A stretch of 64,000 bases of DNA from Leptolyngbyaceae cyanobacterium (GCA_036704005.1 DATNQO010000120.1:3298-67297); one strand, 5' to 3'; shown: positions 5,643 through 39,106, counted from the first letter of the stretch. The notes: generated by a model not told the origin, from the sequence alone. Numbers and translations are program-made.

Positions 5643-5678
5643 AGTGATAATTACTTATGACTCAGCACTCAGCAAAAT

Positions 5679-6128
5679 TTAGCCAGGAGTTTTGACTTGG
5701 CTAGCCATGTCTAAGTAAGAACTCATATTCGCACCTGGACGACGACGACCATTAGAACTAGAGGCTGAAGGCGTTAAGTATTTAGGTGCGAATGTAGTTT
5801 CACCTGGTGGTGTTGTATTAGCAACTGGCGCTTTTTCTGGTTCAGCTTGCTTAGGTGCAGCTTTGCCATTTTTACCATTTTTAGATGCTTCTACTTTGGC
5901 GGTCGCAGGCGCAGGCTTTTTCTCTGTTGCTGGTGGCGCTTCTGCTTTGGCGGCGGCTTTTGTACCGTTAGATGCTACTGGTGTAGCTTGTGGGGCTGGT
6001 GCTGGTGCTGTTTGTTCAGTGCTATCTTCTTTCAGCTCTAAGTAGTAGCCACTGCTTTTCTTACCACCGATTAATCCGGTAAGGAAACTGAGAATCCCAG
6101 CGATTAATTTTTTGATAAAACCGAACAT
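5679..6128 (-). CDS. hypothetical Ala/Pro/Lys-rich protein with hydrophobic N-terminal helix
   Basis: 149-aa ORF. MFGFIKKLIAGILSFLTGLIGG is followed by a low-complexity APAPAPQATP... region. The plus-strand ORFs 5847-6045 are shadows. Confidence 0.45.
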   Translation of the reverse strand: MFGFIKKLIAGILSFLTGLIGGKKSSGYYLELKEDSTEQTAPAPAPQATPVASNGTKAAAKAEAPPATEKKPAPATAKVEASKNGKNGKAAPKQAEPEKAPVANTTPPGETTFAPKYLTPSASSSNGRRRPGANMSSYLDMASQVKTPG

Positions 6129-6523
6129 GAGAATGGCTCCCGAAGTTTTATATCTGTAAATAGACCGTAATGTTAAAAACTACGTCGTAATACTACGTTT
6201 TTTGACTATCAGCTATTGAGTAACAAACCTTGGAGGTTTGTGCTTTATCAAGCTTAAGAATATAAGCTGAGGTTTTCAGCCTTTGTTGGCAAATACTTAC
6301 AAGCTGTAGATATCGAGAATTAATTATTCAATTTTACCGCTACACAGAGCAAGATTCTGAAAGGTTGCTTAATAAAAATTAACATAAATTTTGTTCATAG
6401 GTATACATTGACACAAGCAATGATTTTACCCTGAACCAGTGGGAAGACTGTCATAATCTTTTTGCTGAGGGTAATCAGACTCAGTTAAATTTTCAACAGA
6501 GGCAAACACAAGCAAATTTGTTA

Positions 6524-7189
6524 ATGAAAACTCAAAATCAGCCACGTAATCCCGTAGTATTAGTGCATGGCATTACTGATACGGAAGTTGTCTTTAATTC
6601 GATGGCAGTTTACTTAAGACAATTAGGTTGGACTGTATACACAATAAATTTAGTACCTAACAACGGTGAAGCCCCGCTTAATGTATTGGCGCAGCAGATA
6701 GTTGATTATGTAGCTGCAACTATTGAGCCAGGACAACCCTTTGATTTAGTGGGTTTCAGCATGGGGGGAATTGTCAGCCGTTACTACGTGCAGAGATTGG
6801 GAGGTATTGAGCGTGTACAGCGCTTTGTGACAATTTCCTCACCTCATAATGGCACGGTAGTAGCTTATGCTTCTAGGCTTCCAGGGTGCTTGCAGATGCG
6901 TCCCAATAGCCTATTTCTGCAAGATTTGAATCGTGATGTGCAAATGTTGGAGCAGTTAAATTTTACTTCTATTTGGACACCTTACGATTTGATGATTATC
7001 CCCAATCACAGTTCAAAAATGCCTATAGGCAAAGAACTAATTATTCCCGTAGCGCTGCATTCGTGGATGCTGTCAGATTATAGGAGTTTAACAGCCGTCG
7101 CCGCAGCTTTAGCAGAACCGATTAATGTCGGGGATTGGGGACTGGAGACTAGGGACTGGGGACTGGGGATGGAGGATTTTGTTATTTAA
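6524..7189 (+). CDS. alpha/beta-hydrolase, lipase/esterase-like
   Basis: VVLVHGITD oxyanion-type start and nucleophile elbow GFSMGG. ATG at 6524 preferred over TTG at 6518. The C-terminal tail is encoded by STRR units. Confidence 0.7.
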   Translation: MKTQNQPRNPVVLVHGITDTEVVFNSMAVYLRQLGWTVYTINLVPNNGEAPLNVLAQQIVDYVAATIEPGQPFDLVGFSMGGIVSRYYVQRLGGIERVQRFVTISSPHNGTVVAYASRLPGCLQMRPNSLFLQDLNRDVQMLEQLNFTSIWTPYDLMIIPNHSSKMPIGKELIIPVALHSWMLSDYRSLTAVAAALAEPINVGDWGLETRDWGLGMEDFVI

Positions 7190-7274
7190 GTTACATTTTA
7201 AATTTTGATAGTAGTTAGTTGAAATACAGTTTTTCACGAGTTTAGCTTATATCCTAATTTGGTCATTAGTCATT

Positions 7275-7354
7275 AGTCATTAGTAAGTAGAGACGCGATT
7301 AATCGCGTCTGTACAGTCATTAGTAAGTAGAGACGCGATTAATCGCGTCTGTAC
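7275..7354. repeat. perfect 40-bp tandem duplication, each unit holding a 20-bp palindrome
   Basis: Unit AGTCATTAGTAAGTAGAGACGCGATTAATCGCGTCTGTAC occurs at 7275-7314 and 7315-7354. Palindrome AGACGCGATTAATCGCGTCT is at 7291-7310 and 7331-7350. Confidence 0.9.
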
Positions 7355-7587
7355 AGTCATTAGTCCAGAGAAAGGTAAAAGGTGAAGGCTTTCCCCTTTC
7401 CCCCTTCCCCTGTCCCCTCTTGTAATTAAAAATTAGTTTGCGGTTTTGCCTGTTGACTGTTAGCTTTACCCGTAGAGGAAATATGAAATATGCAGTTTCT
7501 CAATGGGGATGAAGGAAAGTAACCACAGAAGTCTAAAATTAGTTATTCTTTTGATATCTTGACAAAACTACTTGTGGTTGTTGGCTG

Positions 7588-8385
7588 ATGCTGTCATTTC
7601 TTAGCGCTGCGAATCCTTGGTTGGTGGGAGTTGGACTAAATACCGTTCTATTAAGTTTAGTCTGGTTCGCTCCTAAAAAACTGCTGACTCCAGCCGGTGT
7701 GTTTCATGCCTGGTTATTGGGCATACTGATTTGGGGAACTTTAGGCTGGCAGGGATATGTAGTAGTTATGTTCTATTTTATTGTGGGTTCTGGTGTTACA
7801 CGCATCGGTATGGCACAAAAAGAGGCTCTTGGTATTGCGGAAAAGCGTTCGGGAGCAAGAGGCCCGGAAAATGTTTGGGGTTCTGCTCTAACTGCGGCGC
7901 TTTGTGCTATGGGTGTCGGTGTTCTCAATGCCAAAATTTTCCCACTCAATCCCCAGTCCCTAATCCCTAATCCCCAGTCCCTCCTGTTATTAGGTTACGT
8001 CGCCAGCTTTAGTACAAAACTTTCTGATACCTGTGCGAGTGAAGTGGGTAAGGCTTACGGTAAAAGCACTTTCTTGATTACTACATTGCAACCAGTACCT
8101 AAAGGTACGGAGGGTGCGGTGAGTTTAGAAGGGACTTTTGCTGGTGTGGTGGGTTCAGTGGCGATCGCTATTATCGGTTGGGGTGTCAATTTAATCAGCC
8201 CATTAGGTATTCTTTGGTGTGTGCTGGCTGCTTTGATTGCCACGAATTTGGAAAGTGTGATCGGCGCTACCCTGCAATCTAAATATACTTGGTTAACTAA
8301 CGAGATCGTTAATATTCTTAACACTTTAATTGGTGCGATCGCAGCTATATTTTTTGCATTTATTTGGGCATACTCTTTTAGTTAG
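7588..8385 (+). CDS. integral membrane protein, DUF92/TIGR00297-like
   Basis: 265-aa polytopic ORF. Motifs KRSGARGPENVWGS and GTEGAVSLEGT resemble the DUF92 family. Confidence 0.55.
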   Translation: MLSFLSAANPWLVGVGLNTVLLSLVWFAPKKLLTPAGVFHAWLLGILIWGTLGWQGYVVVMFYFIVGSGVTRIGMAQKEALGIAEKRSGARGPENVWGSALTAALCAMGVGVLNAKIFPLNPQSLIPNPQSLLLLGYVASFSTKLSDTCASEVGKAYGKSTFLITTLQPVPKGTEGAVSLEGTFAGVVGSVAIAIIGWGVNLISPLGILWCVLAALIATNLESVIGATLQSKYTWLTNEIVNILNTLIGAIAAIFFAFIWAYSFS

Positions 8386-8592
8386 GAGTAAAGGAGGATA
8401 ACTTTTGACTGTTGAGTGTTGACTAAATTCTCTCTTGGTTTGATAGCTGGAGTAGAAAAATATACCTATGGCAAGACAATTAAATCAAAATAGCAAATCC
8501 ATTGAAATTAAACGATTTTTATTTTTCAACTTGCCATTAATTATTTATAGTTTATAAAATCTTGTTTTTAGCCGTTTTTACCAGGTGTTCTT

Positions 8593-9351
8593 ATGGAAAC
8601 TCTGTCATTTTTGAGTATTGATGACCAACCCATTTCAATTGAACAAACCGTAAAATACCTGCAATCTTCCGGGAAGTTGAGTCAATTTATTAGTGATGTT
8701 CTGCGTCAGTACGTCATTGAGCAGGAGATTCAAGGGCGAGATGATGTTGATATCAATCCAACCCTCACCGAACAAACAGTGATTGATTTTCGCCTGAAAA
8801 ATCAACTAGCTGACCCCCAAGCTTTTCAGGAATGGTTAGCGAGAAATGGTACAGATTACCAAAGATTTCATGCCTCAATTACTTCTAGCTTTAAATTAGA
8901 AAAATTGAAAACTTTGGTGACACAAGCCAAGCTGCCAGAGTATTTTATTGAGCAGAAAATTTTTCTGGATAGAGTTGTATTATCCCGGATTGTAGTCGAT
9001 AGTCGAGAACTAGCAGAAGAATTACAACTGCAAATTGCAGAAGGAGGCAGTTTTGAACAATTAGCCAAAGAGTATTCTGTATTAGACGATCGCGTTGTGA
9101 ATGGCATGATGGGGCCAATTAGTCGTGGTACTATGCCAGACAAGTTGCGGGCGGCTATTGATGCAGTTAGTCCAGGTGAATTAGTCGGGCCTATAGAAAT
9201 TGATGGACGTTATGGTTTGTTTCGAGTGGAACAATTTCTGCCAGCGTCTTTAGATGATATTCAACTCAAGCAAGCATTACAAAACGAATTATTTGAAAAA
9301 TGGTTAGCAGAGAAAATTCAAAAGCTGACGGTGAAATTACAAGTGAGTTAA
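8593..9351 (+). CDS. PpiC/parvulin-type peptidyl-prolyl isomerase-like protein
   Basis: The C-terminal half (SRIVVDSRELAEELQLQIAEGGSFEQLAKEYS...GPI..G.........GELVGPIEIDGRYGLFRVEQ) matches the rotamase pattern. Confidence 0.65.
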   Translation: METLSFLSIDDQPISIEQTVKYLQSSGKLSQFISDVLRQYVIEQEIQGRDDVDINPTLTEQTVIDFRLKNQLADPQAFQEWLARNGTDYQRFHASITSSFKLEKLKTLVTQAKLPEYFIEQKIFLDRVVLSRIVVDSRELAEELQLQIAEGGSFEQLAKEYSVLDDRVVNGMMGPISRGTMPDKLRAAIDAVSPGELVGPIEIDGRYGLFRVEQFLPASLDDIQLKQALQNELFEKWLAEKIQKLTVKLQVS

Positions 9352-25454: not shown

Positions 25455-25796
25455 TATACTGAGAAAGCACTGTATCATGCTCAACGTAAAGCTGTACGTT
25501 TTAAGGATAGTGACTTTGTAGATTTGTATGATTTTTTGAAAGTTTTACAGAATAAATACGCTGGGGATAGTGATGAATTAACCCAGGTTATTGATGAAGT
25601 GATGAATTTAATGATTTTTGAAGTTGAACCGCAGTTAATTTTAGCAAATGTAACTTCTGGGGTAAGATTTGAGCGAGTTAAGGGATTGTCAATTTATTCT
25701 CCGGTGAGAAGTTATTCTCAGTTTTATGACAGGTCAGATTTTGCAGGTTGTGGTTGGGGAGAGTTGGTAAGAGTTTTGAACTGCACAGAAAAATAG
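25455..25796 (+). pseudogene. 3' remnant of a clostripain-like (C11) peptidase gene (tentative)
   Basis: No credible start. The frame is open back to 25407 and runs straight out of the MITE-like element. EKALYHAQRKAVRF.DSDFVDLYDFL and VKGLSIYSP resemble C-terminal motifs of C11 peptidases. Confidence 0.35.
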
Positions 25797-25834: not shown

Positions 25835-27760
25835 TTATAGATAATTATTTCCAACATGCTCATGAGAACCGAATGTTTCTAAGCTTAAAATACCAGCCGA
25901 TGATTTACAACTAACTCGTAAACTAGAATCAACACGAAAGTAATAAATATCTGCATTTGCAAATTTTGCAAATTGTAAACTTCCATTTTGCTTAAGCACT
26001 ACGGTATCTCCATCTGCTTCTGTTAGTAAATAAGATACTTTCGCTAGTGTTTCCTGTAGCTTAACTCTATCTCTATTATTACGATTATTTTGATAATCCC
26101 TTATAAAAGAGCTTGTATAAGATAAACGAGGAAAAACTAATAAATCCTTTGATAAAAAATCATTTTTGCACTTTTTCCAAATTAATGCACCCCAATTTGA
26201 TAAAATAGCATTATTATCAATCGTAAATATAAATGTTTCGGGGATACCTTCAGCTTCTCGTAAATTGATAGAGCCTGCCTCCATTAATGCAAATTTGACA
26301 GGATTGATAATTGAAGTATCAAGTTGTATAGGTATTCTAGGAATATTTATAAGCGTTGGATTTACTCCTTCAAGAACATAAAGAAGCTCATCAGCATATA
26401 ACATTCCAATTATATCCATATATGCTTGTAAGACTCTAGAACTTGCTACTAAGTTAAAAGAAATTCTGTATCCAGAATTTCTGAAGTTAGAAGCTATATC
26501 GTCTAACCAAACCAACAATTCATCTACACCATTCTTAAATCTTTCAGTGTTCGCTGTTGAAAATCCTTTTGGTATATATATATTAGCATTAAGCCCTTGA
26601 CCTCTAAGAAAATCCTGAATAATATCAGCTGTAACTCTAGATATTAGAGTATCACTAGCAATTAAAAAATGATAATCTTGTTTCCCCTGTTCTAATTTAC
26701 CTTGATACAACGCATAAATTACACTAAGTTCAATACTTGCCAACCGAACATCTCTTATACGACCTCCAAAGAGATTTGTAATTGCTCTTTCTTTAAGTTG
26801 ATCAATTATACTTTTAGCTTCTGGACTATACTCTTCAAGTTCTATATTTGTATAGTTAATACTCCGCCGCAAAATGTCGAACCAATAGCTATGGTCGTAC
26901 TTTCTATCAAGTTGATTAGTTAATAGACTTGTACCAAGAGTGGAAATAACTACTCGACGCATAGAGGTTGTTTTTATAGAATTTACTAATGTCCAATCTG
27001 GGGTTTCTGATTCAAGGGATAAATCATAAAGAATATCCTCAAATTGGTTTGTTTCTATTTGTTCTGTAATGGGGAAAATTACACTAGCACTTTCTAACAG
27101 ATTTTTCTGTTGAAGTACTTCGTCAAGTTGATCTGGACGTGTCTCGAAATTGTCTCTAGCTTCGCTTGCAATCCTGTTTACGTCAACCAACAACGGCTCG
27201 AAGCCAGCCTCAAGCAGAGGCTCTGCCAAAGTCTCCACTAAAGAAGCTAACCGCAACACTTCACCTATTTCTTCTTGCTGCACTCTTTGACTTATTGCTT
27301 GGGCTAACTCCTGCGCCACTTCATCAGGTTTGGTATACGCCAACGCTGTCCACTCCTGAGCTTCTCGCAAATCCTGTGTATCTGCGTCATCATCAGTTAA
27401 TCGCTGCGCTACATAATCTAATAAAAATTCCCCCAGTTCATCAAATCTTTCCTGCCCAAACTCCTTCTTCAATTCCCGCAACAATAAATTGCGATCGCTA
27501 ATATCCATCTCATACATCTCATAACCCACCTGACGACACAACCGCGACAGCAACACATGAGCAACCGCCACCCAAGGGGCTTGAGGAACAAAGTTTGCCC
27601 AAATTTGGTAAAGTAAATCAGGTGTCAGTACCAAAGGAAACGCCGCATGACGAGCTAAGTTGCGGTGTGCTTCCCCAAACTGCTGGGCAAACCCTTCTAC
27701 CCGTCTTTGGGCTATTCTCATCGCACGACTTTGGTTAATATCTGCCGTCACATCAGCCAT
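25835..27760 (-). CDS. three-module protein: helical N-domain (vWA-MoxR-associated by position) + CARF-like domain (APE2256/Csx1-type motifs) + RelE/ParE-like C-terminus
   Basis: 641 aa; the start overlaps the vWA stop by 13 nt. aa 267-445 hold VVISTLGTSLLTN, RLASIELS, FLIASDT and FNLVASS. aa 595-641 read FAKFANADIYYFRVDSSLRVSCKSSAGILSLETFGSHEHVGNNYL (RelE/HigB-like). Confidence 0.6.
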   Translation of the reverse strand: MADVTADINQSRAMRIAQRRVEGFAQQFGEAHRNLARHAAFPLVLTPDLLYQIWANFVPQAPWVAVAHVLLSRLCRQVGYEMYEMDISDRNLLLRELKKEFGQERFDELGEFLLDYVAQRLTDDDADTQDLREAQEWTALAYTKPDEVAQELAQAISQRVQQEEIGEVLRLASLVETLAEPLLEAGFEPLLVDVNRIASEARDNFETRPDQLDEVLQQKNLLESASVIFPITEQIETNQFEDILYDLSLESETPDWTLVNSIKTTSMRRVVISTLGTSLLTNQLDRKYDHSYWFDILRRSINYTNIELEEYSPEAKSIIDQLKERAITNLFGGRIRDVRLASIELSVIYALYQGKLEQGKQDYHFLIASDTLISRVTADIIQDFLRGQGLNANIYIPKGFSTANTERFKNGVDELLVWLDDIASNFRNSGYRISFNLVASSRVLQAYMDIIGMLYADELLYVLEGVNPTLINIPRIPIQLDTSIINPVKFALMEAGSINLREAEGIPETFIFTIDNNAILSNWGALIWKKCKNDFLSKDLLVFPRLSYTSSFIRDYQNNRNNRDRVKLQETLAKVSYLLTEADGDTVVLKQNGSLQFAKFANADIYYFRVDSSLRVSCKSSAGILSLETFGSHEHVGNNYL

Positions 27761-28911
27761 GAGTACATCACCTCCCCAGCAATATATCGACCCCGCAACA
27801 CAGTAATTGCTGCATTCATTCCCTGCGGACTCATCTCAAACATCGGCACAAAACGGGCAATTTCCTCAGCCGTAGTTTGCCGCCAGCATTCACTAGGCAT
27901 GGGATTCAACCAAGCAAAATAACGCACCGACTGCTGTAACTGCTCAATCCATACCTTAGTATTATCAACCCGTTCTGGGTCAAAATTCCCCCGTGCTGCT
28001 CCGGCATCGCTAATAATTAATACAGCCGCCCTTTCGCCTATTTCCGCCAAGACTTCAGAAACAGCCTTCGCCTCAAGCATCGCTGGATGTCGATATAAGT
28101 ATTCATCCGGGTAGTCATGAAAATAAAATACATTGGTTGTTCTCAACCGTCCTCCCCGTTGTGCCGTTTCCACCAACTGCCGCGATAAATCGTGAAACGG
28201 AACCATTGAGCCTTCCTGGTCAATTAGTAGCACCAAATCCGTGCGATTTGTACGCGGTGGCATCATCACAGGTTGCAGTAAAATACCCTCACGCCCAATT
28301 TTCGCCACCGTCGCTTCCACATCTAATTCTGTAGGTACTCCTTGGCGCACCGGACGACGCAGATAACGCCAGCATTGCTTCATTTGTCGCTTAGTCACAG
28401 GGAAATATTCTGTCAACAGCATATAACGAGGGCGTTTGAGTTCCCTATCCCTGCGAATACTCCGCACCGCTTGGACAGCTTGCACTGGTTCTGGTGTAAT
28501 AGTGGGAGTTGTTTCTAAATTAGATATTACTTCATCATCAAGAGGAAATTCTTCAGATGTAGCTGTTTCAATTGAGGTTGATTCATCATTTTCTGGTGTA
28601 AATGATTCTGAAATTAAAGTTGAAGTGTCATTACTGGATGTAGGTTCATGCAAAGATTCTGGAGAATTTACAGGGTGTAATTCGATTTGTTTCCACATCT
28701 CCCCAAATAAGCGTTGAATCAGGCGATTTTCTTCTTCAGATTTTGCCCACAACATACAACAAAGCTGCTCTAATTCCAGGCGACTATTAACACCAAACCC
28801 GGCTTTGAAACTACGCACAACCACTAAATATTCTTCAACCCCCAACGGCAAACCATGTCTCTGTCGCAGGCTGTTAAAAATATCTAGCAGTGATAGTTCT
28901 TCAAGTTTCAT
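27748..28911 (-). CDS. vWA-domain protein, CoxE-like
   Basis: 387 aa. Helical N-domain, S/T/E/P-rich linker, WRYLRRPVRQGVPTELDVEATV, and MIDAS-position LLIDQEGSM. Overlaps both neighbours. Confidence 0.7.
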   Translation of the reverse strand: MKLEELSLLDIFNSLRQRHGLPLGVEEYLVVVRSFKAGFGVNSRLELEQLCCMLWAKSEEENRLIQRLFGEMWKQIELHPVNSPESLHEPTSSNDTSTLISESFTPENDESTSIETATSEEFPLDDEVISNLETTPTITPEPVQAVQAVRSIRRDRELKRPRYMLLTEYFPVTKRQMKQCWRYLRRPVRQGVPTELDVEATVAKIGREGILLQPVMMPPRTNRTDLVLLIDQEGSMVPFHDLSRQLVETAQRGGRLRTTNVFYFHDYPDEYLYRHPAMLEAKAVSEVLAEIGERAAVLIISDAGAARGNFDPERVDNTKVWIEQLQQSVRYFAWLNPMPSECWRQTTAEEIARFVPMFEMSPQGMNAAITVLRGRYIAGEVMYSWLM

Positions 28912-29821
28912 ATTTTTTTAAATATCGCAGATGGTCTTCCCATTTCTTTAACAGAACTTCTGGAAAAGGTATTTCTCCCTCTAACTGCTTTAACACCTCA
29001 TCTTCAGGAAATTGCCGCAACACTGCAAACCAATCTAACAACTCACTGGTGCTAACTTTTTTACCTGCTTTCCCCTTCTCCATTTTCTGACGTAATTCAC
29101 TAAAACGCTGCACCGCAGCTTCCACTAAATCCGGTGAAGATTCCGAAAAGTGTGACTTGACAATATTAGCTAATTGTGAATATGGAAACTGAATATAATA
29201 AAACAGACAACGCCGCAGGAAAGCGTCTGGTAAATCCTTTTCATCGTTGCTAGTAACGATAATAATTGGAGGGTAATTTGCTTTGACTTCTTCTCCCTTT
29301 TCTTCAATTGTAAATTTCTGTTCATCTAACTCTCGTAACAAATCATTAGGGAAGTCAATATCAGCTTTATCAATTTCATCAATTAAAACTACGGTGCGCT
29401 GTTCATTTTTAAACGCACGTCCCAAAGGCCCCAATTTAATATAATTATCTAAATCCTTGACTTGAGAATTGCTTGCTTCCCCGATGCGAGAAAGTTGAGC
29501 ATCATGCAAGCGTCCAACCGCATCGTAGGTGTAAAGTCCATCTCTCGCCCTGGTTGTAGACTTAATAAACCAAGCTTCATAGGGTAAACCCAATTCGTAA
29601 GCTACCGCTTGCGCTAAAGTCGTTTTACCGCATCCTGGTTCACCTTTGAGCAATAAGGGGCGTTTTTCTAAGAAAATTGCCAGATTAACAGCTTGAATGA
29701 GTTCTGGTGATGGTAAGTAAGGAGTGAGTCCGTACTTTTGGCACTCTTGGGGTGAAATTGGCTTGCCTGTATAATATTGCTTGCCATTGGCAGTGAGTAC
29801 ACTTGCTAAATTTTGATACAT
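28901..29821 (-). CDS. MoxR-type AAA+ ATPase
   Basis: 306 aa. Walker A GEPGCGKT, Walker B VVLIDEIDKAD, sensor-1 IIIVTSN and FLRRC. Confidence 0.8.
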   Translation of the reverse strand: MYQNLASVLTANGKQYYTGKPISPQECQKYGLTPYLPSPELIQAVNLAIFLEKRPLLLKGEPGCGKTTLAQAVAYELGLPYEAWFIKSTTRARDGLYTYDAVGRLHDAQLSRIGEASNSQVKDLDNYIKLGPLGRAFKNEQRTVVLIDEIDKADIDFPNDLLRELDEQKFTIEEKGEEVKANYPPIIIVTSNDEKDLPDAFLRRCLFYYIQFPYSQLANIVKSHFSESSPDLVEAAVQRFSELRQKMEKGKAGKKVSTSELLDWFAVLRQFPEDEVLKQLEGEIPFPEVLLKKWEDHLRYLKKYET

Positions 29822-31371
29822 TGGGTAAAAACCTTTTCACAATCAATACTAAAAAAACTACAAATTTCTTCAAAGACAAATTGGGGAATACCTTGACAAG
29901 ACTTTTGAAACAATATTTCAGATGTCAATTTATCAAATTCGACTTCTATATCACTACGCTGCATCACAACTTCTGTTATCCATTCTTCAAGAATTTCCAG
30001 GGAAAAACTATCTACTGCGGGTAAGTATAGAGGTATTCGTGGGTCTAGAGGTTGAGGAGTTGTTGATACATTAATATTTGACTGGTGTACTTTGCCGCCA
30101 TGATCTACTAAAAACATAAACAAGTGAGTAGATTTTTTAGGTGGATTTTCTTTTCCGATATTTACCAATGGCTGCCAAAACTCCTCTAGCCAAGCAGATA
30201 AAATTTCTGGTTGTAAGCAATCTACTTTATTAAATATGAAAACCATATCTTGAGTCTGCCAGCGATCGCAAATTTTCTCCAAAATTTCGGAGGTAGAAAT
30301 TGGATGTACATGAAAATAACGTCCTAATTGCGTCCATAAGCGTTCTATATCTCTGTAACCTACATCAATGACAATTGGCTTGTTTTTCAAACTTGGTATC
30401 ATACGAAATAACTTAGCCAGCAAAACTTCTAATCCACACTCAGGTGCGTGATGAACTAAGAAGCCTGCTGTAAAGTAGCTTTTCATTACCTTCTTGACTA
30501 TATTTGTCTGTTGTTTAAAATCTACTTGTAAGAGTAAATCAAATATTAAAGTATGTTTCGTGTTTTGAGAAAGATTCGTTGTTTCTGACTGAGGTTTAGC
30601 CTTTCCTTGAATCAGCTTAATAGCTTCGCCGTGGTTGCTAATTACTGGGGATTGGGGAATTTTAGCCAAATTGTAATATCTTTGTAGGTTCTGCTCAACC
30701 GAATCTGCAAGCTTCAGGTTTGTAATCCAGTCCCCTTCTGTAACTCGATGAGGGTTAAGTCCCGCTAAAATAGCACCTGTAAGTACCCCATGTTTACCAT
30801 CTAACTGCTGATAGGCAACTTCATAGTCACGGGATGCAGCAATCAAGAAGCGATCGCAACCAGAACTATGTCTTTCCAGTTCAGTATCTTGGAAATTTAG
30901 TAATTCTCCAGCAAAACAGCAATCAAGCCAGATAATCTGCTGTTTAACCTTACTTCGGTGCAATATATCCCATAAATCTCGTAGCGAAAAACCCCATTGA
31001 TTTTTGCTAGGACAACTATCACTAGCTGCTAAATAACCATACGTTAACTCTTGGCTTAATTGCTTACGCAGTCCATGTCCAGTAAAAAATAGTAGTGCTG
31101 TTTCTGGAGGTTTTTCGGTCTTCGGGAGGAATAGATCGAGAATTGCTTGTTCTAGTTCTTCTGTCTTAACTAGTTTATCTGGATCAACCTGCATCCCGTC
31201 TATATTGCTGGCTGGAAATCGCTTAACTCGGAAGTTCCCGTGGGTTTCTAGAATTTGAGCGATCGCTTCCGCATCCCCGGCTGGCGTAGTTAGGTGCTTG
31301 GCTTTACTTGTCGGTGTATCCTTTAAAGATGGATATTGATTGACCCCAACTACAATTGCTTCTCTTCTCAT
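29806..31371 (-). CDS. caspase-like (C14-type) peptidase fused to a degenerate P-loop-NTPase-like region and a short C-terminal domain
   Basis: 521 aa. His in LLFFTGHG (H99), Cys in IIWLDCCFAG (C151). aa ~275-430 have NTPase-like strand/helix spacing, but the Walker-A position reads HHAPECGLE. Confidence 0.7.
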   Translation of the reverse strand: MRREAIVVGVNQYPSLKDTPTSKAKHLTTPAGDAEAIAQILETHGNFRVKRFPASNIDGMQVDPDKLVKTEELEQAILDLFLPKTEKPPETALLFFTGHGLRKQLSQELTYGYLAASDSCPSKNQWGFSLRDLWDILHRSKVKQQIIWLDCCFAGELLNFQDTELERHSSGCDRFLIAASRDYEVAYQQLDGKHGVLTGAILAGLNPHRVTEGDWITNLKLADSVEQNLQRYYNLAKIPQSPVISNHGEAIKLIQGKAKPQSETTNLSQNTKHTLIFDLLLQVDFKQQTNIVKKVMKSYFTAGFLVHHAPECGLEVLLAKLFRMIPSLKNKPIVIDVGYRDIERLWTQLGRYFHVHPISTSEILEKICDRWQTQDMVFIFNKVDCLQPEILSAWLEEFWQPLVNIGKENPPKKSTHLFMFLVDHGGKVHQSNINVSTTPQPLDPRIPLYLPAVDSFSLEILEEWITEVVMQRSDIEVEFDKLTSEILFQKSCQGIPQFVFEEICSFFSIDCEKVFTQCIKI

Positions 31372-31417
31372 ACTAACTAATTTTCACCGTACCAAGTATC
31401 ACAAAATACCCACTTTA

Positions 31418-33628
31418 ATGAATACTTCCGTTCCCAAAACTCTACTAGCTTTTTTACTGGCGCTCAAAGAATTGGAAGTTCCGTTGAGCAAAGATGAACA
31501 AGAGCTTTTGCATGATATAGGAAATCAACTTAAACTAGCTCCTGATGATTGGGATCTGATTGAAGCCGAATTAATCGCTATTATTCAAGCAAACTCCGTA
31601 CTAAATCATATTTATGAGTATAACAAAGTCAAATTAGATGCTTTAGAGGGAAGTTTCCCTAGAGAATTGTTACCAAGTCTAGCTGACTTAGAGAAAGAAT
31701 TATTTGCGGACACAAGAGAAATCATCACTTTTGACGGTCAAACTAAAGGTGAACCTAACAATCAACCAAACCTATTAATTAGCCTGACCAGTTCTATCCT
31801 GCTTACTGATAACCAAGACAACATTATAAAACAGCTACCTTTCATACAAAATATTGCTGAGTATGTAGAAAAATATCGTTACTTTAATACTTACTTTGTT
31901 AAACCTGATGAGGATGGGCGATGTGATAATTTCACAACAGTACCACCCAGTCAACCTTTAATACACGGACAAACTTATTTATTATGTGTAGATATCAGCC
32001 CAGAACGAAAAGGCATAGAAAGTGAGCCTATGCCCTTTCCAGAGCAAGCCTTGGCTGAGGTTTGGCATGACTCAGAATCCTTACCTCTTGATTTAGTCGT
32101 GGCTTCCAAGGATTTTAACATTGATGCAACTGTCAAAAAACTAACCCTACCCCGCACTGGTGCATCAGAGATTGTACAGTTCACGATTAAACCTAACTTG
32201 TTTGAAGGTCGGGGTTACATTCACATAGACTTGTTATATCGCGGATATCTGCTTCAGTCCAAGCAAATCACAGTCCTTATCATCCCCATAGCAGGAGCCG
32301 AAATCCCGGAATCACTGCGCCCACCGCAAACCGCTAAGATAACCTTTACCACCACAGACTTACTGACTCATGAAAAGCTAGCACTGTTGCCTGAGCGATT
32401 CTTCACTGTAGATGTACAGGTAGATACAAGAGATGGTAGCACTGACCTGCGCTTTCTCGACAGAACACAGGGCAATGAAGAATTATTGTCTTACAGTACC
32501 AATTTACAATCTGGGCTGGGGAATGCGATCGCCAGAATCCGGCAAAAATTGCACTCAATGGCGACGGCTTATAAGTTTAAAACTCAAGGCGATATGCAGC
32601 TTCTAAATACTTGGCTACCTCAGTTAGCTGATGCTGGACACTCTTTATATCGCTCACTACTTGATAAAAACAAAGGTCTAACATTAGGTGAAGATAGAGG
32701 CGAAAAATTAAGCGCCGCCTTGAAACCCGATAGCGTCATCCAAATTAACCCGATTAACCCTATTTTAGGATTGGGAAAGTCTACCATTCCTTGGGCGTTA
32801 CTATACGAGCGTAAAGTAATGACCAGTAAAGAAAATCATGTCTGCAAAGAGTTTCTCAATCACGACATCGACTGTACTGATTGCCCTTTTAAAAATAATT
32901 ATAAAGTTGTTTGCCCTCATGCTTTTTGGGGCTACCGCTATGCTATTGAGCAATTACCAGCTTGGACAATTAGCGAAGGTTCTCAAACGCCTAGCCTTGT
33001 ATGGCAAATTGCTAACAATCAACCTTTATATATTAATTTCAACGTCTGGCGAGATTTTAGGTTTTGGCAAAACCACCTACCTAAAATTGAACAACTTGGT
33101 TCCGTGAAAATATTAATAGCTGAAGAAATAAACGACTTGGAACTAATTTGGTCAAATCACAGTTCAGACTTAGATATTATCTACTTTTATTGTCATGGAG
33201 GCATAGACGAAACTGAAAATTTGCCCTACTTGCAACTGAGCGATGACAAAATTTACAGTAATTTTATCGAAGCCTGTGAGGTAAACTGGCAGCATCGCCC
33301 TTTAGTTTTACTCAACGGTTGCGCTACAGGTGATTATGGCCCTGATAGTTACATCAGCTTAATTGATGACTTTCGTGTAGCTGGCGCTAGTGGTGTCATT
33401 GGTACAGAATGTCCTATACCAGAGTTATTTGCAGAACTTTATGCTGTCACTCTGCTGAAACGGGTATTTCGGGGCGAACCTTTAGGAAAAGCTATGCTGA
33501 CAGTGCGGCGAGAAATGCTTCAGCAAAACCTCAATCCTTTGGGTTTACTGTATTCATTGTATGCTCCTTATGAGATTGCTTTAGCTCGTGCGTTGGCGCA
33601 GCCCGCCGTAGGCATCGCCCCTAATTAA
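31418..33628 (+). CDS. CHAT-domain (caspase-fold) protease with unknown N-terminal region
   Basis: C-terminal IIYFYCHGG (His codon 33194-33196) and LVLLNGCATG (Cys codon 33320-33322). Cys cluster C-x9-C-x2-C-x9-C-x-H at 32843-32920. ATG 31418 preferred over TTG 31340. Confidence 0.75.
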   Translation: MNTSVPKTLLAFLLALKELEVPLSKDEQELLHDIGNQLKLAPDDWDLIEAELIAIIQANSVLNHIYEYNKVKLDALEGSFPRELLPSLADLEKELFADTREIITFDGQTKGEPNNQPNLLISLTSSILLTDNQDNIIKQLPFIQNIAEYVEKYRYFNTYFVKPDEDGRCDNFTTVPPSQPLIHGQTYLLCVDISPERKGIESEPMPFPEQALAEVWHDSESLPLDLVVASKDFNIDATVKKLTLPRTGASEIVQFTIKPNLFEGRGYIHIDLLYRGYLLQSKQITVLIIPIAGAEIPESLRPPQTAKITFTTTDLLTHEKLALLPERFFTVDVQVDTRDGSTDLRFLDRTQGNEELLSYSTNLQSGLGNAIARIRQKLHSMATAYKFKTQGDMQLLNTWLPQLADAGHSLYRSLLDKNKGLTLGEDRGEKLSAALKPDSVIQINPINPILGLGKSTIPWALLYERKVMTSKENHVCKEFLNHDIDCTDCPFKNNYKVVCPHAFWGYRYAIEQLPAWTISEGSQTPSLVWQIANNQPLYINFNVWRDFRFWQNHLPKIEQLGSVKILIAEEINDLELIWSNHSSDLDIIYFYCHGGIDETENLPYLQLSDDKIYSNFIEACEVNWQHRPLVLLNGCATGDYGPDSYISLIDDFRVAGASGVIGTECPIPELFAELYAVTLLKRVFRGEPLGKAMLTVRREMLQQNLNPLGLLYSLYAPYEIALARALAQPAVGIAPN

Positions 33629-33643
33629 TTGTCTGATACCATC

Positions 33644-35296
33644 ATGAAACGCTGGATTACTGCTGCATTACTAATTTTACTTGTTTGTCCTGCTCCTGCT
33701 ATTGCTCAAACTAACGTCAAAATTGAAATCGATGCTAAAGATAAGCCTTTAGAAATTAAAGGTTGGCTGGGTGAAGAGAATAGTTTAATTAGCAATATCC
33801 GATTAACCGCTTCTGGGGGAAACATCACATCTTGGACATTTCTACCCTCAGACTTGAAGCGCCAAGAGGGAGATGAGGTATTAGGCCGACAACAGGTAGA
33901 ATTAATAGGCGATCGCAAGTTAGAAGCTGGACTACCAAAGGATTTCCAGGTGAAACTTAACGGTGTTAAGTTACCAGGAACTTACCAAGGACAACTGGAA
34001 ATACTTCTACCCAATCAAAAGCGGTCTGAAGCTTTGGTAATTCCTTTAACAGTGACAGCAAAAGCCAAACCTGCATTAGTACCAGCCAAAGATTCAGAAC
34101 AATTGCAACTACAATTAGTCCGATGCAGTTGGGACTGTGGTTTAGCGCAGTTATTACTTCCTGCGAGTGCTTTCCAAAGTCAAAGACTAATTTATTTAGA
34201 TAATCCTAATCAAGCAACTGTATCTCTGACCAGTGCAGAAGTAATTTTACAAGGGAAATTAACAAACTATCAAATTACCAATACTGAGGTAGAACCACCA
34301 GTAAGTCCCCAAACTTTAGCTGCGAATAAAATTATTAGTTTGCCTTTGAAGTGGGAGCGATCGCAAATTCCCCCCGACAGATATACTGGAGCAGTTTACC
34401 TGACAATGGAAGGTAGAGAAGGAAGACTATCAATTCCCATAGATTTAAGTATGCGGACTGGCCCAGCCATACCAATTTTAGTGTTATTGCTGGGTATTTT
34501 GTTGGGTAGGTTGTTTAAATATATGCAGGAAAAGGGGATTCCACAATCGGATGCTTTGGCGAAAGTCTATGAACTAGAGAACTTGATTAGTCAAGCCGAC
34601 CCCCAAGACCAAGAAATTCTCAGTCCGATGATTAATCAAGTCCGAAGTTCAGTTACTCAAATGGATTTAGAAACAGTAAATGCAGATTTAGCCATCATTA
34701 AAGAGCGTTTCAACTCCTTAGATAAGCTAAGAAAAATCGAACAGCAGTTACAAGATATGAAACAAGACCCTGATGTGGGTGGTGATAACGGAATATTAGC
34801 CAAAATTAATGAAGCTCGAAAGAACATTAAATTAGAAAAGGATAATCAAGCTCAAGAATTGCTGCAACAAATACAGGATAGTATCATCCAACTCCAGAAG
34901 AATGTAATGATGGGAGGAAATCAACCACCTGATCCTAGTTTGATAATAGCCGCAAATGAAGCTGCTGAGGCTAGAAAATATGCTGAAGCTATACAAGCTC
35001 AGAAACTTAAAACTCCTCGGTTTGTTTGGTGGAGAAGACCTTTAATAGTTATAGCTGGAGTATCTAACGAATTACGAGCAGAAGCTACTTTGTGGGTGGT
35101 GCGACCACTGTTATCTTTAACTTTGTTATTAGGATTGTCCCTAGTAGGGTTACGTGCTTTGTATGTAGAAAAGGGGTTAACCTTTGGTGCTAACCCCTTT
35201 TCTGATTATGTGGAATTAATATTATGGGGATTGAGTGCAGATGTCGCTAGTCGGAGTTTGAGTAATTTGGCGGGGGGAGAGGAAAAGAAAGAGTAG
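33644..35296 (+). CDS. signal-peptide membrane protein with beta-rich N-region, coiled coil and C-terminal TM helices
   Basis: MKRWITAALLILLVCPAPAIAQ signal, TM at AIPILVLLLGILLG, long charged helical region, and two further hydrophobic segments. Starts 15 nt after the CHAT stop. Confidence 0.6.
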   Translation: MKRWITAALLILLVCPAPAIAQTNVKIEIDAKDKPLEIKGWLGEENSLISNIRLTASGGNITSWTFLPSDLKRQEGDEVLGRQQVELIGDRKLEAGLPKDFQVKLNGVKLPGTYQGQLEILLPNQKRSEALVIPLTVTAKAKPALVPAKDSEQLQLQLVRCSWDCGLAQLLLPASAFQSQRLIYLDNPNQATVSLTSAEVILQGKLTNYQITNTEVEPPVSPQTLAANKIISLPLKWERSQIPPDRYTGAVYLTMEGREGRLSIPIDLSMRTGPAIPILVLLLGILLGRLFKYMQEKGIPQSDALAKVYELENLISQADPQDQEILSPMINQVRSSVTQMDLETVNADLAIIKERFNSLDKLRKIEQQLQDMKQDPDVGGDNGILAKINEARKNIKLEKDNQAQELLQQIQDSIIQLQKNVMMGGNQPPDPSLIIAANEAAEARKYAEAIQAQKLKTPRFVWWRRPLIVIAGVSNELRAEATLWVVRPLLSLTLLLGLSLVGLRALYVEKGLTFGANPFSDYVELILWGLSADVASRSLSNLAGGEEKKE

Positions 35297-35300: not shown

Positions 35301-35804
35301 TTAGATAATAGGTGCATGAGGGCCTACATCACCCCCTGAAAAAGGTTGATTCTCTTTTATTCGCTCTTCCAAAAGAGTTGATAGTTCTTCTGGAGTTTTC
35401 ACCCATAATCTTTCAATATTAGAACTTTCTGATGTGTTCAGAAGTTCTTTGATGTAATTTTCTTGTTCTGTAGTCACAGCTACAGGTAAATCTGGTGTAC
35501 CCACAATAGTAATTGTTGGATAATACAGGGCTTCAGCAATAGTAAAGCCAAATCGACAGCGAAATTTATTAAAATATTGCCAACTGGCTTGAATCCAAGG
35601 GATAGGAACTATTTCGGTTTCATTTTGACCAAATAGAATATATTGTAATAACAAATTATCTACTTTATCGACCAACTCCATAGCTTTAATTATTTTGCAA
35701 GTTGACTCATTGTCAAAAGAAAACTTAACTTGTTTAGTATCTTCGTCTATCTTTAATTTTCTTCTAGTCTTTTCAACAGCAATAGAAAAAGGAACTAATT
35801 CCAT
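35301..35804 (-). CDS. hypothetical protein, operon partner of the caspase-STAND gene
   Basis: 167-aa ORF beginning 11 nt after the upstream stop. No family recognised. Confidence 0.5.
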   Translation of the reverse strand: MELVPFSIAVEKTRRKLKIDEDTKQVKFSFDNESTCKIIKAMELVDKVDNLLLQYILFGQNETEIVPIPWIQASWQYFNKFRCRFGFTIAEALYYPTITIVGTPDLPVAVTTEQENYIKELLNTSESSNIERLWVKTPEELSTLLEERIKENQPFSGGDVGPHAPII

Positions 35805-35815: not shown

Positions 35816-38800
35816 TTATTTAACTATAGGTTTATTAGAACGATAGACTCCTTGATCTGTCCCAATCCACAGATATTTATCCGTCCCCAAAATCATATTA
35901 TAAACTTTCTTAACTTGACCGTTTTTGATAGAAATATTTACCCAATTATTGTCTATATGGTTATATAAAGAAATATGGTTTTTATTTGTCAGAGCTAATA
36001 TTGATTTATTAGGTAAAATGATTAAATCTAATATAGTACTGCCTAATGTAGAGTAATTACTTATATCGTTATTTTTCAACCTGGAGTCACTGGAAACATT
36101 CGTGATCATACTCACATTTCCATTAAAGTCACCAATGGCTAAGGTTCTTTGCTCAGAATTAAAATTTAATGTTCTGAAATCTCTAAATGGTAATTTAAAA
36201 CCATCCTGTTGTTTTTCATGGTAACATATAGGTTGATCATTACCTATACCCATACGGATAAGAGCCTCTGGTGCAGATATCCATAAAGAATTATTATTTT
36301 TATCTATAACTATTTTATCAATATGCAATGATGAAGTAGGTAGGGATTTACATAGCTGATGAATATCTCTGATATATTGCCATCCTCTAGAATTTTGTAT
36401 GTAAAGCCCCTGATCAGTTCCTAACCACAAGTTACCTTGTTTATCTTTAGCTATCGTTAAAATTTCTGTATCATTAGGAATAGATTTAATAGTTTTAAAT
36501 ACCATTTTATCATTATCTAACTTGCCTTTTAGCACACCTAATTCTTTAACTCCAACCCAAATTTCTTCTCCTTCAGCCCAAATAGCACTGACTTTTTTTT
36601 CCGGTAAATATTTACTTAAAATATGAGTTTGCATATTGTACTGCCATAAACCTAGACCATGTTTTCTCAACAATCCATTATGGAAATATCTCTTAGGCGA
36701 ATATGCTGCCATCCACAATGATTTATTAGTAATAATTAACTTTTCTATGGAAAAATTCACTGTTTCTTGAATGGGCGAGGTTTGATTGATTGCTTGTTTT
36801 AAATTTTCTATTTCATTTTTCTTGGTTAGTATTTCTGTTGTTTTTACTAACTGAATACTCAGCATTATAGAAAATCCCGTAGTCATACATAAAGCAAAAA
36901 TTAAACCTATAAAAGTGTTTTTTCGCCGACGATTCTTTATAAATTCTTGTCTATCTGTTTCTATGCGACTAATTTTAATAAACTCTTGCGCTAAACTAGA
37001 TAAATGTATGATTCTGAAATTCTTTTCTAAAAAATATTCAACTTCAGCTAGTTTTTTTCCTTGTAATAGATAAGCTGATTCAAACATCTTACCTTTATCT
37101 TCCCATTCTTCGGCAGCAGCCTGGATCCTGCGCTCAGTTCTAATCGCCTCCCGATTATTATCCAGCAACTTTTGCAACCTTGACCAATGGCGAATTAAGG
37201 CTTCATGCGCTACATCCACTACCGCCACCTTCTCCTCACCTCGACGTTGTTCGCTAGTAACAATTAACTTAGCCTGTGCCAATTTTTGAATTACTTGCTT
37301 TACCAACTGTGCAGATTTACCCAACGAATCTAAATCTCGCTGCGGAACTTGCTTACGTGTATCTGGTGTCCCTTCCCCTAACTGAGTTAAATTAATAAAA
37401 ATCAAATCTGCTATTTTTTGTTCTTCAGCCGATAGTTGTTTGTAAGTTTGTTCTGCCAGATTTTCTAGAGTTTTTCGCACCCCACCTAATTGATGATAAC
37501 TGTCTAGCTTCAACCAATTTAATGTCTGCCGTTGCCAAAGTTGTTCTAAAGTATATGACAATAAAGGCAACATTCCCGGTTCAGGTTCTTGTGGGGAATC
37601 TTCAACAGCAACTCCCAAATCTTGGAGAATAGCATTAATGAGATTTTCTTCCACCTTCCGCCCTAGTTTGGCTGCTGGTTCTCTGATGACTCGCTGCAAC
37701 TCTTCTAAAGACATGGGAGTTACCATCAGCAAATTGCTTTGAATTAAATCAGCCAGTTGATGATGTGTAGCACATTTACCTAAAAAGTCATCACGCATGG
37801 CAAATATCAGGCAGAGTTTATCTTCTGTCTGTTTGAGCGCACCTAATAAACTAGAAATAAAATGTTGTCGGTCAGTTGGGTTTTGACAAAGGGTAAAAAT
37901 CTCTTCAAATTGATCGACAATTAGTAGGGTACGGGGCGATCGCGCTGCTTTAATTAATCTTGCCACTCCCGTTGCACCTTGAGCGATCGCATCTTCTGCT
38001 ATTTTTAGCTGTTCTGCACGCTGAATATCTGTGACTGACTCATCAAGAAATACCGTGGCTAAACTTACCAAAGGTCGCTCTGTGGGAGTCAACACCCGAA
38101 TCTTCCATTGTTCTGTCTCTGGTAATCTACGTTCCTGTTGTAATTGGTATATCAACCCCGCTCGTAGTAAGGAAGATTTCCCACTCCCCGACACCCCCAA
38201 GACTGCCAAAAAGTTGCCTTTACCCACCTGAATGTGCTGGATGAGCTTTTGGGTTAATAATTCTCGCCCATAAAAATAAGCTGCATCTTCAACATCAAAG
38301 AAACGTAATCCTTTGTATGGACAAACTCCCTCTGGGATGTGGATGAGAGTATTTTCCCGTTCCCCAGTGAGAATAATTTCCCGGTTGGGATTATACCATA
38401 TCGGTTGTTGGGGAATCTCCTTGAGTGTTTGGGAAATAAACTCAATTAATTTGTCATTGTTGACCAAACCATCTGGCTGTTGTCTGGGGTCTAGTCCTTG
38501 CCATAGTGCTTGAGAAAATACCCCATGCTGTCCTGCAATATCTTCCTCTGCAACTTCAAATTCTCTGGATGCCGCGATGAAAAATCGCGTCTGTTCTTGA
38601 GGCGATGTACCTAAATCTGCTTCTCGAAAATTAAATAACTCTCCACTGTAGCAACAGTCAAGCCAGACTATTTGCTGCTTGAGAGGGCTTTTTTGCAACA
38701 GTTCTCGCAACCATCGCAGGGAAACACCCCATTGATTCTTGCGGGGGTCAACGTCACTGGTAGCTAAAAAACCTTCTGTGACTCCGCCGCGATTTTTGCG

Positions 38801-39106
38801 TAAACCATGACCGATAAAGTACAGCAGTGCCGTTTCTGGGACATTCTGTCCCACTGGGTTAAATAGCTGAATAATTGCATCTTCTAATGTATCAGACTTG
38901 ACCAAGCCATCAGATGCAACGCAACGCTGTTCACCTTGAATCCTTTCTGGTAAGCGCCGCACACGAAAACCGCCATATTCTTCCAATCGTTGGGCGATCG
39001 CTTCGGCATCATTAGCAGGAGTAACCAGATTTTTCGCTTTGCTTGTTGGAGTATCTTTCAGGAAAGGATACTGATTAATTCCCACTACCAGCGCATCTCG
39101 ATTCAT
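35816..39106 (-). CDS. caspase-like peptidase + STAND P-loop NTPase + TM helix + beta-propeller (Reg_prop-like repeats)
   Basis: 1096 aa. H100 (YFIGHG), C151 (VWLDCCYSG). PYKGLRFFDVEDAAYFYGRE precedes Walker A GVSGSGKS and Walker B LLIVDQFEE. TM at aa 731-754. Repeats NLWLGTDQGLY, SLWISAPEAL and YLWIGTDQGVY. Confidence 0.75.
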   Translation of the reverse strand: MNRDALVVGINQYPFLKDTPTSKAKNLVTPANDAEAIAQRLEEYGGFRVRRLPERIQGEQRCVASDGLVKSDTLEDAIIQLFNPVGQNVPETALLYFIGHGLRKNRGGVTEGFLATSDVDPRKNQWGVSLRWLRELLQKSPLKQQIVWLDCCYSGELFNFREADLGTSPQEQTRFFIAASREFEVAEEDIAGQHGVFSQALWQGLDPRQQPDGLVNNDKLIEFISQTLKEIPQQPIWYNPNREIILTGERENTLIHIPEGVCPYKGLRFFDVEDAAYFYGRELLTQKLIQHIQVGKGNFLAVLGVSGSGKSSLLRAGLIYQLQQERRLPETEQWKIRVLTPTERPLVSLATVFLDESVTDIQRAEQLKIAEDAIAQGATGVARLIKAARSPRTLLIVDQFEEIFTLCQNPTDRQHFISSLLGALKQTEDKLCLIFAMRDDFLGKCATHHQLADLIQSNLLMVTPMSLEELQRVIREPAAKLGRKVEENLINAILQDLGVAVEDSPQEPEPGMLPLLSYTLEQLWQRQTLNWLKLDSYHQLGGVRKTLENLAEQTYKQLSAEEQKIADLIFINLTQLGEGTPDTRKQVPQRDLDSLGKSAQLVKQVIQKLAQAKLIVTSEQRRGEEKVAVVDVAHEALIRHWSRLQKLLDNNREAIRTERRIQAAAEEWEDKGKMFESAYLLQGKKLAEVEYFLEKNFRIIHLSSLAQEFIKISRIETDRQEFIKNRRRKNTFIGLIFALCMTTGFSIMLSIQLVKTTEILTKKNEIENLKQAINQTSPIQETVNFSIEKLIITNKSLWMAAYSPKRYFHNGLLRKHGLGLWQYNMQTHILSKYLPEKKVSAIWAEGEEIWVGVKELGVLKGKLDNDKMVFKTIKSIPNDTEILTIAKDKQGNLWLGTDQGLYIQNSRGWQYIRDIHQLCKSLPTSSLHIDKIVIDKNNNSLWISAPEALIRMGIGNDQPICYHEKQQDGFKLPFRDFRTLNFNSEQRTLAIGDFNGNVSMITNVSSDSRLKNNDISNYSTLGSTILDLIILPNKSILALTNKNHISLYNHIDNNWVNISIKNGQVKKVYNMILGTDKYLWIGTDQGVYRSNKPIVK

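Follow-up and report, generated by a model that had tools for sequence, protein, structure and literature searches.

Within a stretch of 64,000 nucleotides from a Leptolyngbyaceae cyanobacterium (GCA_036704005.1, DATNQO010000120.1:3298-67297; the whole stretch is referred to as the window), four overlapping genes on the minus strand between positions 25,835 and 31,371 probably form an iSTAND-type MoxR-vWA ternary conflict system in a split four-gene layout, with a mechanism as in the published model. Gene 1 encodes a caspase-like peptidase fused to an iSTAND domain, gene 2 a MoxR-like AAA+ ATPase, gene 3 a vWA protein and gene 4 a helical module that is followed by an acidic tether and a cassette of CARF, winged-helix (wHTH) and RelE-like domains (Table 1). 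Both the type of the system and the split layout have been predicted in the literature; the CARF-wHTH-RelE cassette is uncatalogued. A preliminary description, made from the sequence alone, had proposed a vWA-MoxR conflict operon carrying two different effectors, a protease and a CARF-RelE protein.

The four genes and their conservation in cyanobacteria

The open reading frame (ORF) listing of the window recovered the four genes at the coordinates proposed before, with stop-to-start overlaps of 16 nt (29806-29821), 11 nt (28901-28911) and 13 nt (27748-27760). These overlapping frames support one operon-like unit. An independent assembly of a public run (L055, Logan SRR5823602) was 100 % identical to the window locus over 6508 nt. 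All motifs quoted in the preliminary description were located, and the assignments to caspase, MoxR, vWA and CARF/RelE proteins were upheld by profile searches together with predicted-structure comparison. The caspase-like peptidase of gene 1 has an intact His/Cys dyad, with His99 in FFTGHG (residues 95-100) and Cys151/152 in WLDCCFAG (residues 148-155). The caspase context stood, but the catalytic residue had been given as Cys151, and Cys152 of D150-C151-C152-F-A-G is the likelier candidate by analogy with metacaspases, whose motif is D-S-C-H-S-G. The STAND-like region behind the peptidase had been suspected to be inactive, in agreement with the match to the iSTAND family and with an eroded Walker A site, which reads HHAPECGLE (residues 307-315) and lacks GK[ST]. 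Gene 2 was identified as MoxR-like AAA+ protein by a profile search (AAA_5, E 1.5e-14). Its Walker A (GEPGCGKT, residues 60-67), Walker B (VVLIDEIDK, 144-152), sensor-1 (TSN in IIIVTSN, 186-192) and arginine (FLRRC) motifs were at least 95 % conserved in 35 homologues. Gene 3 matched VWA_CoxE (E 3.4e-11) and is composed of a conserved N-terminal part of approximately 75 amino acids, a variable linker rich in acidic residues, serine and threonine (approximately residues 78-140) and the vWA domain, whose metal ion-dependent adhesion site (MIDAS) has the sequence D-Q-E-G-S instead of the canonical DxSxS and was kept in 39 homologues.

Table 1 Features of the locus and of its surroundings, with positions counted from the first nucleotide of the window (AF2, AlphaFold2; pLDDT, predicted local distance difference test)
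Feature	Residues (aa)	Position (nt)	Strand	Length	Description or basis
Gene 1		29806..31371	minus	521 aa	caspase-like peptidase + iSTAND fusion
Caspase-like peptidase	gene 1, 3-241	30649-31365	minus		Peptidase_C14 PF00656, E 3.8e-11
iSTAND	gene 1, 280-422	30106-30534	minus		PF19995, E 7.2e-21, model positions 1-163 of 163
Gene 2		28901..29821	minus	306 aa	MoxR-like AAA+ ATPase
Gene 3		27748..28911	minus	387 aa	CoxE-type vWA protein, without C-terminal effector
MIDAS	gene 3, 231-235	28206-28220	minus		D-Q-E-G-S
Gene 4		25835..27760	minus	641 aa	helical module + tether + CARF-wHTH-RelE
Constant all-helical module	gene 4, 1-207	27140..27760	minus		AF2 pLDDT ~90
Acidic tether	gene 4, 208-266	26963..27139	minus		non-conserved, predicted-disordered, AF2 pLDDT 42-55
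CARF domain	gene 4, 267-481	26132..26962 (with winged helix)	minus		CARF7/APE2256 family; profile + structure match
Winged-helix region	gene 4, 482-543	26132..26962 (with CARF)	minus
RelE/YafQ-fold domain	gene 4, 544-641 + stop	25835..26131	minus		structure match
ORF convergent with gene 4		25524-25796	plus	90 aa	region 25461-25781 matches Peptidase_C11 aa 327-433 of 437, 64 % identity
CHAT-domain protein		31340-33628	plus	762 aa	divergent, upstream of gene 1
Protein beside CHAT gene		33629-35296	plus	555 aa	without family match
ORF		35301-35804	minus	167 aa	without family match
Caspase + nSTAND1 NTPase + beta-propeller protein		35816-39106	minus	1096 aa	caspase N-terminus closely paralogous to that of gene 1

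MoxR-vWA systems with an iSTAND protein as third component, bearing an N-terminal caspase-like or trypsin-like peptidase, TIR or EAD, are part of the published model (Kaur et al. 2020, PMC7159879), which names this version 'vWA-MoxR subsystem 2' and finds it concentrated in cyanobacteria. Genes 1-3 fit the iSTAND-type description point for point, and the link to these conflict systems drawn in the preliminary description was confirmed. Its suggestion of a VMAP protein as third component failed: a VMAP match was absent from the nine proteins scanned (E <= 0.01), and the iSTAND protein takes this place.

Forty-five genomic loci of related genes were fetched and seven further contexts were examined besides. 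The gene with the helical module was located directly after the vWA gene in all 45 cyanobacterial loci (without a scored vWA match in the case of L036), and the order iSTAND-MoxR-vWA-fourth gene was present in every locus whose contig extends far enough upstream, a conservation of the gene neighbourhood across cyanobacteria. Identities to the window proteins ranged in the 45 loci from 74 to 94 % for MoxR, 64 to 96 % for vWA, 56 to 90 % for the helical module and 33 to 87 % for iSTAND, which is the fastest-evolving constant component; this low identity fits the published view of iSTAND as the sensor. The contigs of L001, L016 and L044 were binned as Acetobacteraceae, Chryseolinea and Actinomycetota, respectively, with genes 70-93 % identical to cyanobacterial ones, and are probably contaminations of metagenome-assembled genome bins.

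The variable parts are situated at the two ends of the system. At the iSTAND N-terminus, most related loci have a helical domain of approximately 100 amino acids, an EAD8 in the case of L052; a caspase is present in the window and in L014, L020, L032, L034, L046 and L049, a TIR domain in L002 and a helix-turn-helix (HTH) domain in L013, L045 and L047. At the other end, a word-indexed search with the helical module of gene 4 retrieved 112 close cyanobacterial homologues with 45-88 % identity and very different C-termini, among them GUN4, DUF1257, vWA, receiver, HEAT, WD40, Macro, pentapeptide, Csx3, S1, RNA polymerase alpha CTD and GH25 domains. An exhaustive profile search gave 1942 cluster representatives; in nearly all of the best 150 of these the module occupied residues 1-250, in proteins of 262 to 1647 amino acids. 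The C-terminal cassettes of the fourth gene were affiliated to 39 Pfam families across 36 loci, including DUF1257 (4 loci), AAA_35 and NACHT (3 each), receiver, CARF, caspase and CHAT (2 each), TGS/RelA, FHA, septin-like and DUF2103 domains. Both ends, the iSTAND N-terminus and the C-terminus of the fourth protein, swap independently. The closest relative of the core genes, in Calothrix anomala (L007; vWA 96 %, MoxR 93 %, iSTAND 87 %), differs from the window in both its cassette and its iSTAND N-terminus.

The helical module itself matched no Pfam family, and a Foldseek search gave no relative among solved structures (best E 1.2). It is positionally equivalent to 'vWA-L', the name given by Kaur et al. 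(2021, PMC8195603) to a helical linker that joins vWA to its effectors, and the assignment as vWA-L is a positional one that follows this literature. The four domains together had been presented as an undescribed combination. For the four-gene layout this cannot be maintained, as the split vWA-L variant was published (Kaur et al. 2021), for the CARF-RelE effector it can: CARF or RelE as effector is not mentioned in the main text or supplement of Kaur et al. 2020, and in the supplements of Kaur et al. 2021 that were searched the one occurrence was a 'CARF+PIN' entry unrelated to this role. A precedent for the capture of CRISPR modules is Csx3, likewise ancillary to type III systems, which Kaur et al. 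mention as an effector.

The exchange at both ends bears on the first interpretation of the locus, which placed a VMAP-like vWA-MoxR pair between two effectors that do damage independently, the caspase and the CARF-RelE RNase. Both enzymatic domains are indeed encoded in one operon, and the caspase dyad is intact. However, a VMAP domain is missing, the caspase occupies the place that TIR, HTH or EAD8 adaptor or signalling modules have in the relatives, and the RNase residues are degraded in the window copy. The published model attributes a signalling or processing role to the N-terminal caspase, TIR or EAD and the effector role to the variable module after vWA-L (Kaur et al.). We regard two separate effectors as very unlikely; following that model, the caspase is most likely a processing module.

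Several loci differ in the region between vWA and vWA-L. A gap of approximately 650 nt separates the two genes in about half of the related loci. In L051 a Uma2 (DUF820) gene is inserted there (1087-1725; Pfam Uma2), and an ORF of 212 amino acids, equal in size to this Uma2 protein, is found at the equivalent place in L002 (9308-9946). A Uma2 gene is also located directly 3' of a standalone CARF-RelE gene within type III CRISPR operons (L053, 11194-11760; L054, 3836-4405). L052 encodes a long vWA protein (634 amino acids, with C-terminal GerE/sigma70_r4; 5091-6995) and a separate vWA-L-CARF-RelE protein (7001-8920), two cassettes in one operon.

The CARF-wHTH-RelE cassette of gene 4

In a profile search Cas_APE2256 matched residues 341-475 of gene 4 (E 4e-18), and the PADLOC model CARF7--CARF_RelE spanned residues 267-635 end to end (E 5.9e-115). 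The AF2 model of residues 267-641 (pLDDT 88) had its best Foldseek match in Cami1 (8PHJ_X and 8PHB; E 4e-14, approximately 390 columns, 397 for 8PHJ_X). The next matches were Crn1 ring nucleases for the CARF part, then RelE, YafQ and YoeB for the final stretch of ~100 residues (prob 1.00, TMt 0.59-0.71). When a profile of the C-terminal 113 residues was searched against PDB and Pfam, there was no significant match, only weak hints to YafQ (E 0.07-1.2); the RelE call is therefore based on the structure match and the PADLOC model, not on sequence similarity to Pfam or PDB entries. Homology searches revealed approximately 15 clusters of fused proteins of 636-646 amino acids, 54-71 % identical to the window protein, and more than 100 standalone cyanobacterial proteins of approximately 375 amino acids, 44-52 % identical. 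In type III CRISPR operons, the genes of two standalone homologues are flanked by those of Cas10 and RAMP proteins. From these standalone relatives and the Cami1-like fold it follows that the cassette is a type III CRISPR ancillary effector captured behind the putative vWA-L.

Among the loci examined the fused vWA-L-CARF-RelE gene was always in the iSTAND-MoxR-vWA context. Its iSTAND partner carries a caspase in the window, L046 and L049, a TIR domain in L002, an HTH domain in L047, an EAD8 in L052, in L043 a helical N-terminus of approximately 97 amino acids similar to the EAD8 type, and in L050 an N-terminus without family match. A pairing rule between the cassette and the type of the iSTAND N-terminus was not apparent in these loci. 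The fused gene of L043 (Microseira wollei NIES-4236; 7457-9341) is split into three frames, a probable pseudogene or sequencing error.

The residues of 17 fused and 103 standalone CARF-RelE proteins were compared. Ten CARF positions that are invariant in the standalone proteins have conserved changes in the fused clade: N346S, G347V, G350A, Q373I, G439A, F441S, K442R, N449D, T450I and R475K. The GTS motif (276-278) with Ser278, N436 and most other invariant CARF residues were retained. Position 442 aligns with the lysine of ring nucleases (Sis0811 K169, SyCsm6 K167); it is lysine in 100 % of the standalone proteins and arginine in the window and in 16 of the 17 fused proteins. From the residue set of Crn1-type ring nucleases, the gene 4 CARF has kept the serine and lacks the lysine (Arg442). 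SyCsm6/Sll7062 of Synechocystis was shown to be a cyclic oligoadenylate (cOA) ring nuclease, with K167A as putatively inactive control (PMC9676260). In the fused clade the pattern suggests a CARF pocket that is altered yet under constraint rather than one in decay.

Such a pocket could mean that CARF acts as a working nucleotide sensor, for cyclic tetra-adenylate (cA4) provided by a type III CRISPR system elsewhere or for another ligand, e.g., a TIR product, in an AND gate with the conflict system. The conserved core (GTS, N436, Arg or Lys at 442 and many invariant residues) is consistent with a retained binding function, the clade-wide change of about ten positions in the pocket region would fit an altered specificity, the arginine in place of the ring-nuclease lysine could prolong the occupancy by the signal, and one CARF-RelE locus has a TIR-iSTAND protein (L002). 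On the other hand, the large ORFs of the window include no cyclase or Cas10, the cassette is paired with caspase-, TIR-, HTH- and EAD8-type iSTAND proteins without pattern, and the changed residues were placed in the pocket by sequence comparison. This sensor role is quite unlikely in our judgement. We give an equally low rank to a stronger form, in which the vWA-L-fused CARF would be a re-tuned second-messenger receptor that has lost ring-nuclease activity by K442R and, with its changed pocket, wires a cOA or other nucleotide signal into the MoxR-vWA/caspase death machine.

In the RelE domain the window copy deviates most. The conserved HFRV is changed to YFRV and LRxYG to LETFG, corresponding to H607Y, R628E and Y630F; positions 607, 609, 615, 628, 630 and 631 read Y, R, R, E, F and G, the family consensus is H, R, R, R, Y and G. 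H607 was present in 103 of the 103 standalone proteins and Y630 in 102. A deviation in H607, Y630 or G631 was observed in 7 of the 17 fused versus 5 of the 103 standalone proteins (Fisher p = 1.7e-4), with the window copy as the most altered one. The full H607/Y630/G631 triad is present in 10 of the 17 fused proteins, and 8 of these also have R609, R615 and R628, i.e., the complete H-R-R-R-Y-G set. Since three conserved RelE residues are replaced, the RNase of the window allele is probably weak or dead, and its cassette may act only by binding or may be decaying. The pocket changes of the fused-clade CARF, including the ring-nuclease lysine, and the loss of the three RelE residues in the window look new.

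An impaired immune protein may also serve as a bait. The cassette would then be a decoy for counter-defence factors of phages or a sponge for cOA, its binding or modification would fire the system and the caspase would be the executioner. Kaur et al. emphasise that inactive copies of cellular proteins are frequent among the variable modules and may serve as decoys, and other cassettes on the helical module are harmless host-type domains (GUN4, REC, HEAT, RNAP alpha CTD, S1, DUF1257). The erosion of the RelE triad in the fused proteins, worst in the window, points in the same direction, as does a CARF domain that is still constrained and has clade-specific changes. However, the majority of fused proteins has kept the triad, among them those with the complete residue set, the fast-evolving part expected of a sensor is the iSTAND protein and not the cassette, and no phage factor targeting Cami1-like proteins was found in the literature searched. 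A decoy function is unlikely on balance, and we prefer to see the cassette as an effector released by the iSTAND-type system.

Proposed mechanism and points against it

Applied to the locus, the published model suggests the following course. An invader would be sensed by the iSTAND protein. ATP hydrolysis by MoxR, together with the vWA protein as co-chaperone, would reorganise the linker regions or the complex and set a threshold. The caspase on the iSTAND protein would be the activating protease that frees the cassette, probably by a cut in the acidic tether of gene 4, which is the candidate site of the proteolytic release. The freed cassette would stop translation via ribosome-dependent mRNA cleavage of the RelE type and cause growth arrest or abortive infection in the filament.

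Several points weigh against this assignment. Co-transcription is predicted from the overlapping reading frames, and scans of the locus for promoters and terminators gave counts equal to those of shuffled sequences. In three long vWA proteins (L052, L015, L016), the C-terminal extension was not matched by the profile of the gene 4 N-module. The ten largest other ORFs of the window include no cyclase, Cas10 or RAMP genes, and a source of cOA that would switch on a CARF-gated toxin was not found among them. H607, R628 and Y630 were provisionally matched, by conservation and strand position, to catalytic basic and aromatic residues of the RelE toxins (K52, K54, R61, R81 and Y87 in RelE). Experiments on iSTAND-type systems were not found in the literature, and every mechanistic step is inferred. 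To this extent the preliminary description was right to state that these systems lack experimental characterisation; for the beta-propeller type the statement has been overtaken by a 2026 preprint.

The system in this genome might also be a non-working relic. The three RelE substitutions affect near-invariant positions, only the last quarter is left of the neighbouring Peptidase_C11 gene, and HSP70, which lies beside it in L046 and L049, is missing. Against decay speak the four intact frames with conserved overlaps, the intact motifs of MoxR, vWA and caspase and the absence of frameshifts, unlike the copy of Microseira. We regard a relic as highly improbable, and an iSTAND-type MoxR-vWA system in split layout remains our preferred assignment.

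Surroundings and related systems

Downstream of the operon, the last quarter of a Peptidase_C11 gene forms an ORF of 90 amino acids that runs convergently with gene 4. L046 and L049 have a full C11 gene and an HSP70 gene after the operon; the window is without most of the former and all of the latter. On the other side, the gene of a CHAT-domain protein diverges from gene 1, and its annotated TTG start overlaps the start of gene 1. The CHAT gene also adjoins the system in L026, L014, L007 and L030, and the partner of 555 amino acids was detected beside it in L026 and L014. A 167-aa ORF follows the caspase-nSTAND1 gene. The operon, the CHAT gene and the caspase-nSTAND1 gene constitute a 13-kb island of caspase/CHAT conflict genes.

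Defence catalogues did not provide a label for the locus: PADLOC matched the caspase and CARF-RelE parts only and gave nothing for vWA. The matches to the NCBIfam families MadB and MadC were far under their cut-offs, and the locus was not filed there. The closest correspondence is with the iSTAND-type MoxR-vWA system (eLife 9:e52696; eLife 10:e70394), shared in a MoxR protein without extra extensions, a CoxE-type vWA protein, a caspase-iSTAND third protein, a variable effector behind a helical module, in the linker position, in a separate gene beside vWA, and the concentration in filamentous cyanobacteria. In contrast to these papers, which do not name the CARF-wHTH-RelE cassette in text or in the supplements searched, the split layout is no small minority in this cyanobacterial family, as judged from the 1942 cluster representatives and the N-terminal position of the module in nearly all of the best 150. 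Cami1, the cA4-activated CARF-RelE mRNA interferase of type III CRISPR (PDB 8PHB, 8PHJ), shares the three-part fold over the full length of the cassette. With Cami1 and with SyCsm6/Sll7062 the cassette has the CARF7/APE2256 family in common, and its closest standalone homologues lie inside type III operons. Unlike these proteins, it is fused behind 266 amino acids of constant module and tether in a MoxR-vWA operon without neighbouring CRISPR genes, an arginine stands in place of the ring-nuclease lysine, about ten residues of the pocket region differ clade-wide, and the window RelE carries the three substitutions described above. The RelE fold of the last ~100 residues is that of the type II toxin-antitoxin proteins RelE, YafQ and YoeB. 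Unlike in those modules, the domain forms the end of a multidomain protein of 641 amino acids and has a sequence similarity under Pfam and PDB thresholds, and no small antitoxin ORF adjoins gene 4 in the ORF listing of the window.

The only experimentally studied relative found is the Esr threat-sensing pathway of Actinomycetota, a beta-propeller MoxR-vWA system (bioRxiv 10.64898/2026.09.08.750141). There, too, a conserved MoxR-vWA pair relays from a sensor to an output that are both variable; however, its sensor is a surface beta-propeller, its output is kinase/FHA signalling to Esx secretion, and iSTAND, caspase and vWA-L cassette are absent. SAVED-CHAT and CalpL of type III CRISPR likewise bring together, in one immune pathway, a domain for nucleotide sensing and a protease of the caspase-like or Lon type. 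There a single protein contains both parts and is activated by Cas10 products, whereas the locus has separate proteins, MoxR-vWA and no Cas10.

Few predicted immune families of multicellular bacteria are as large as the MoxR-vWA ternary systems. The locus and its relatives with intact RelE (L046, L049) present a compact four-gene version with a known output readout, i.e., A-site mRNA cleavage of the Cami1 type, cOA binding and ring-nuclease activity, and thus the model of sensor, ATPase threshold, protease release and effector becomes directly testable. The capture of a type III CRISPR ancillary effector by a non-CRISPR system, with a ligand pocket that was apparently changed afterwards, bears on the exchange of immune modules, and the cassette bears as well on the question whether variable modules are weapons or decoys. 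The architecture will not surprise specialists; the value of the locus lies in a captured and modified Cami1-like module as a handle on the iSTAND mechanism. If the fused CARF were indeed a re-tuned receptor, it would be the first functional bridge from CRISPR signalling to the apoptosis-like conflict systems of multicellular bacteria.

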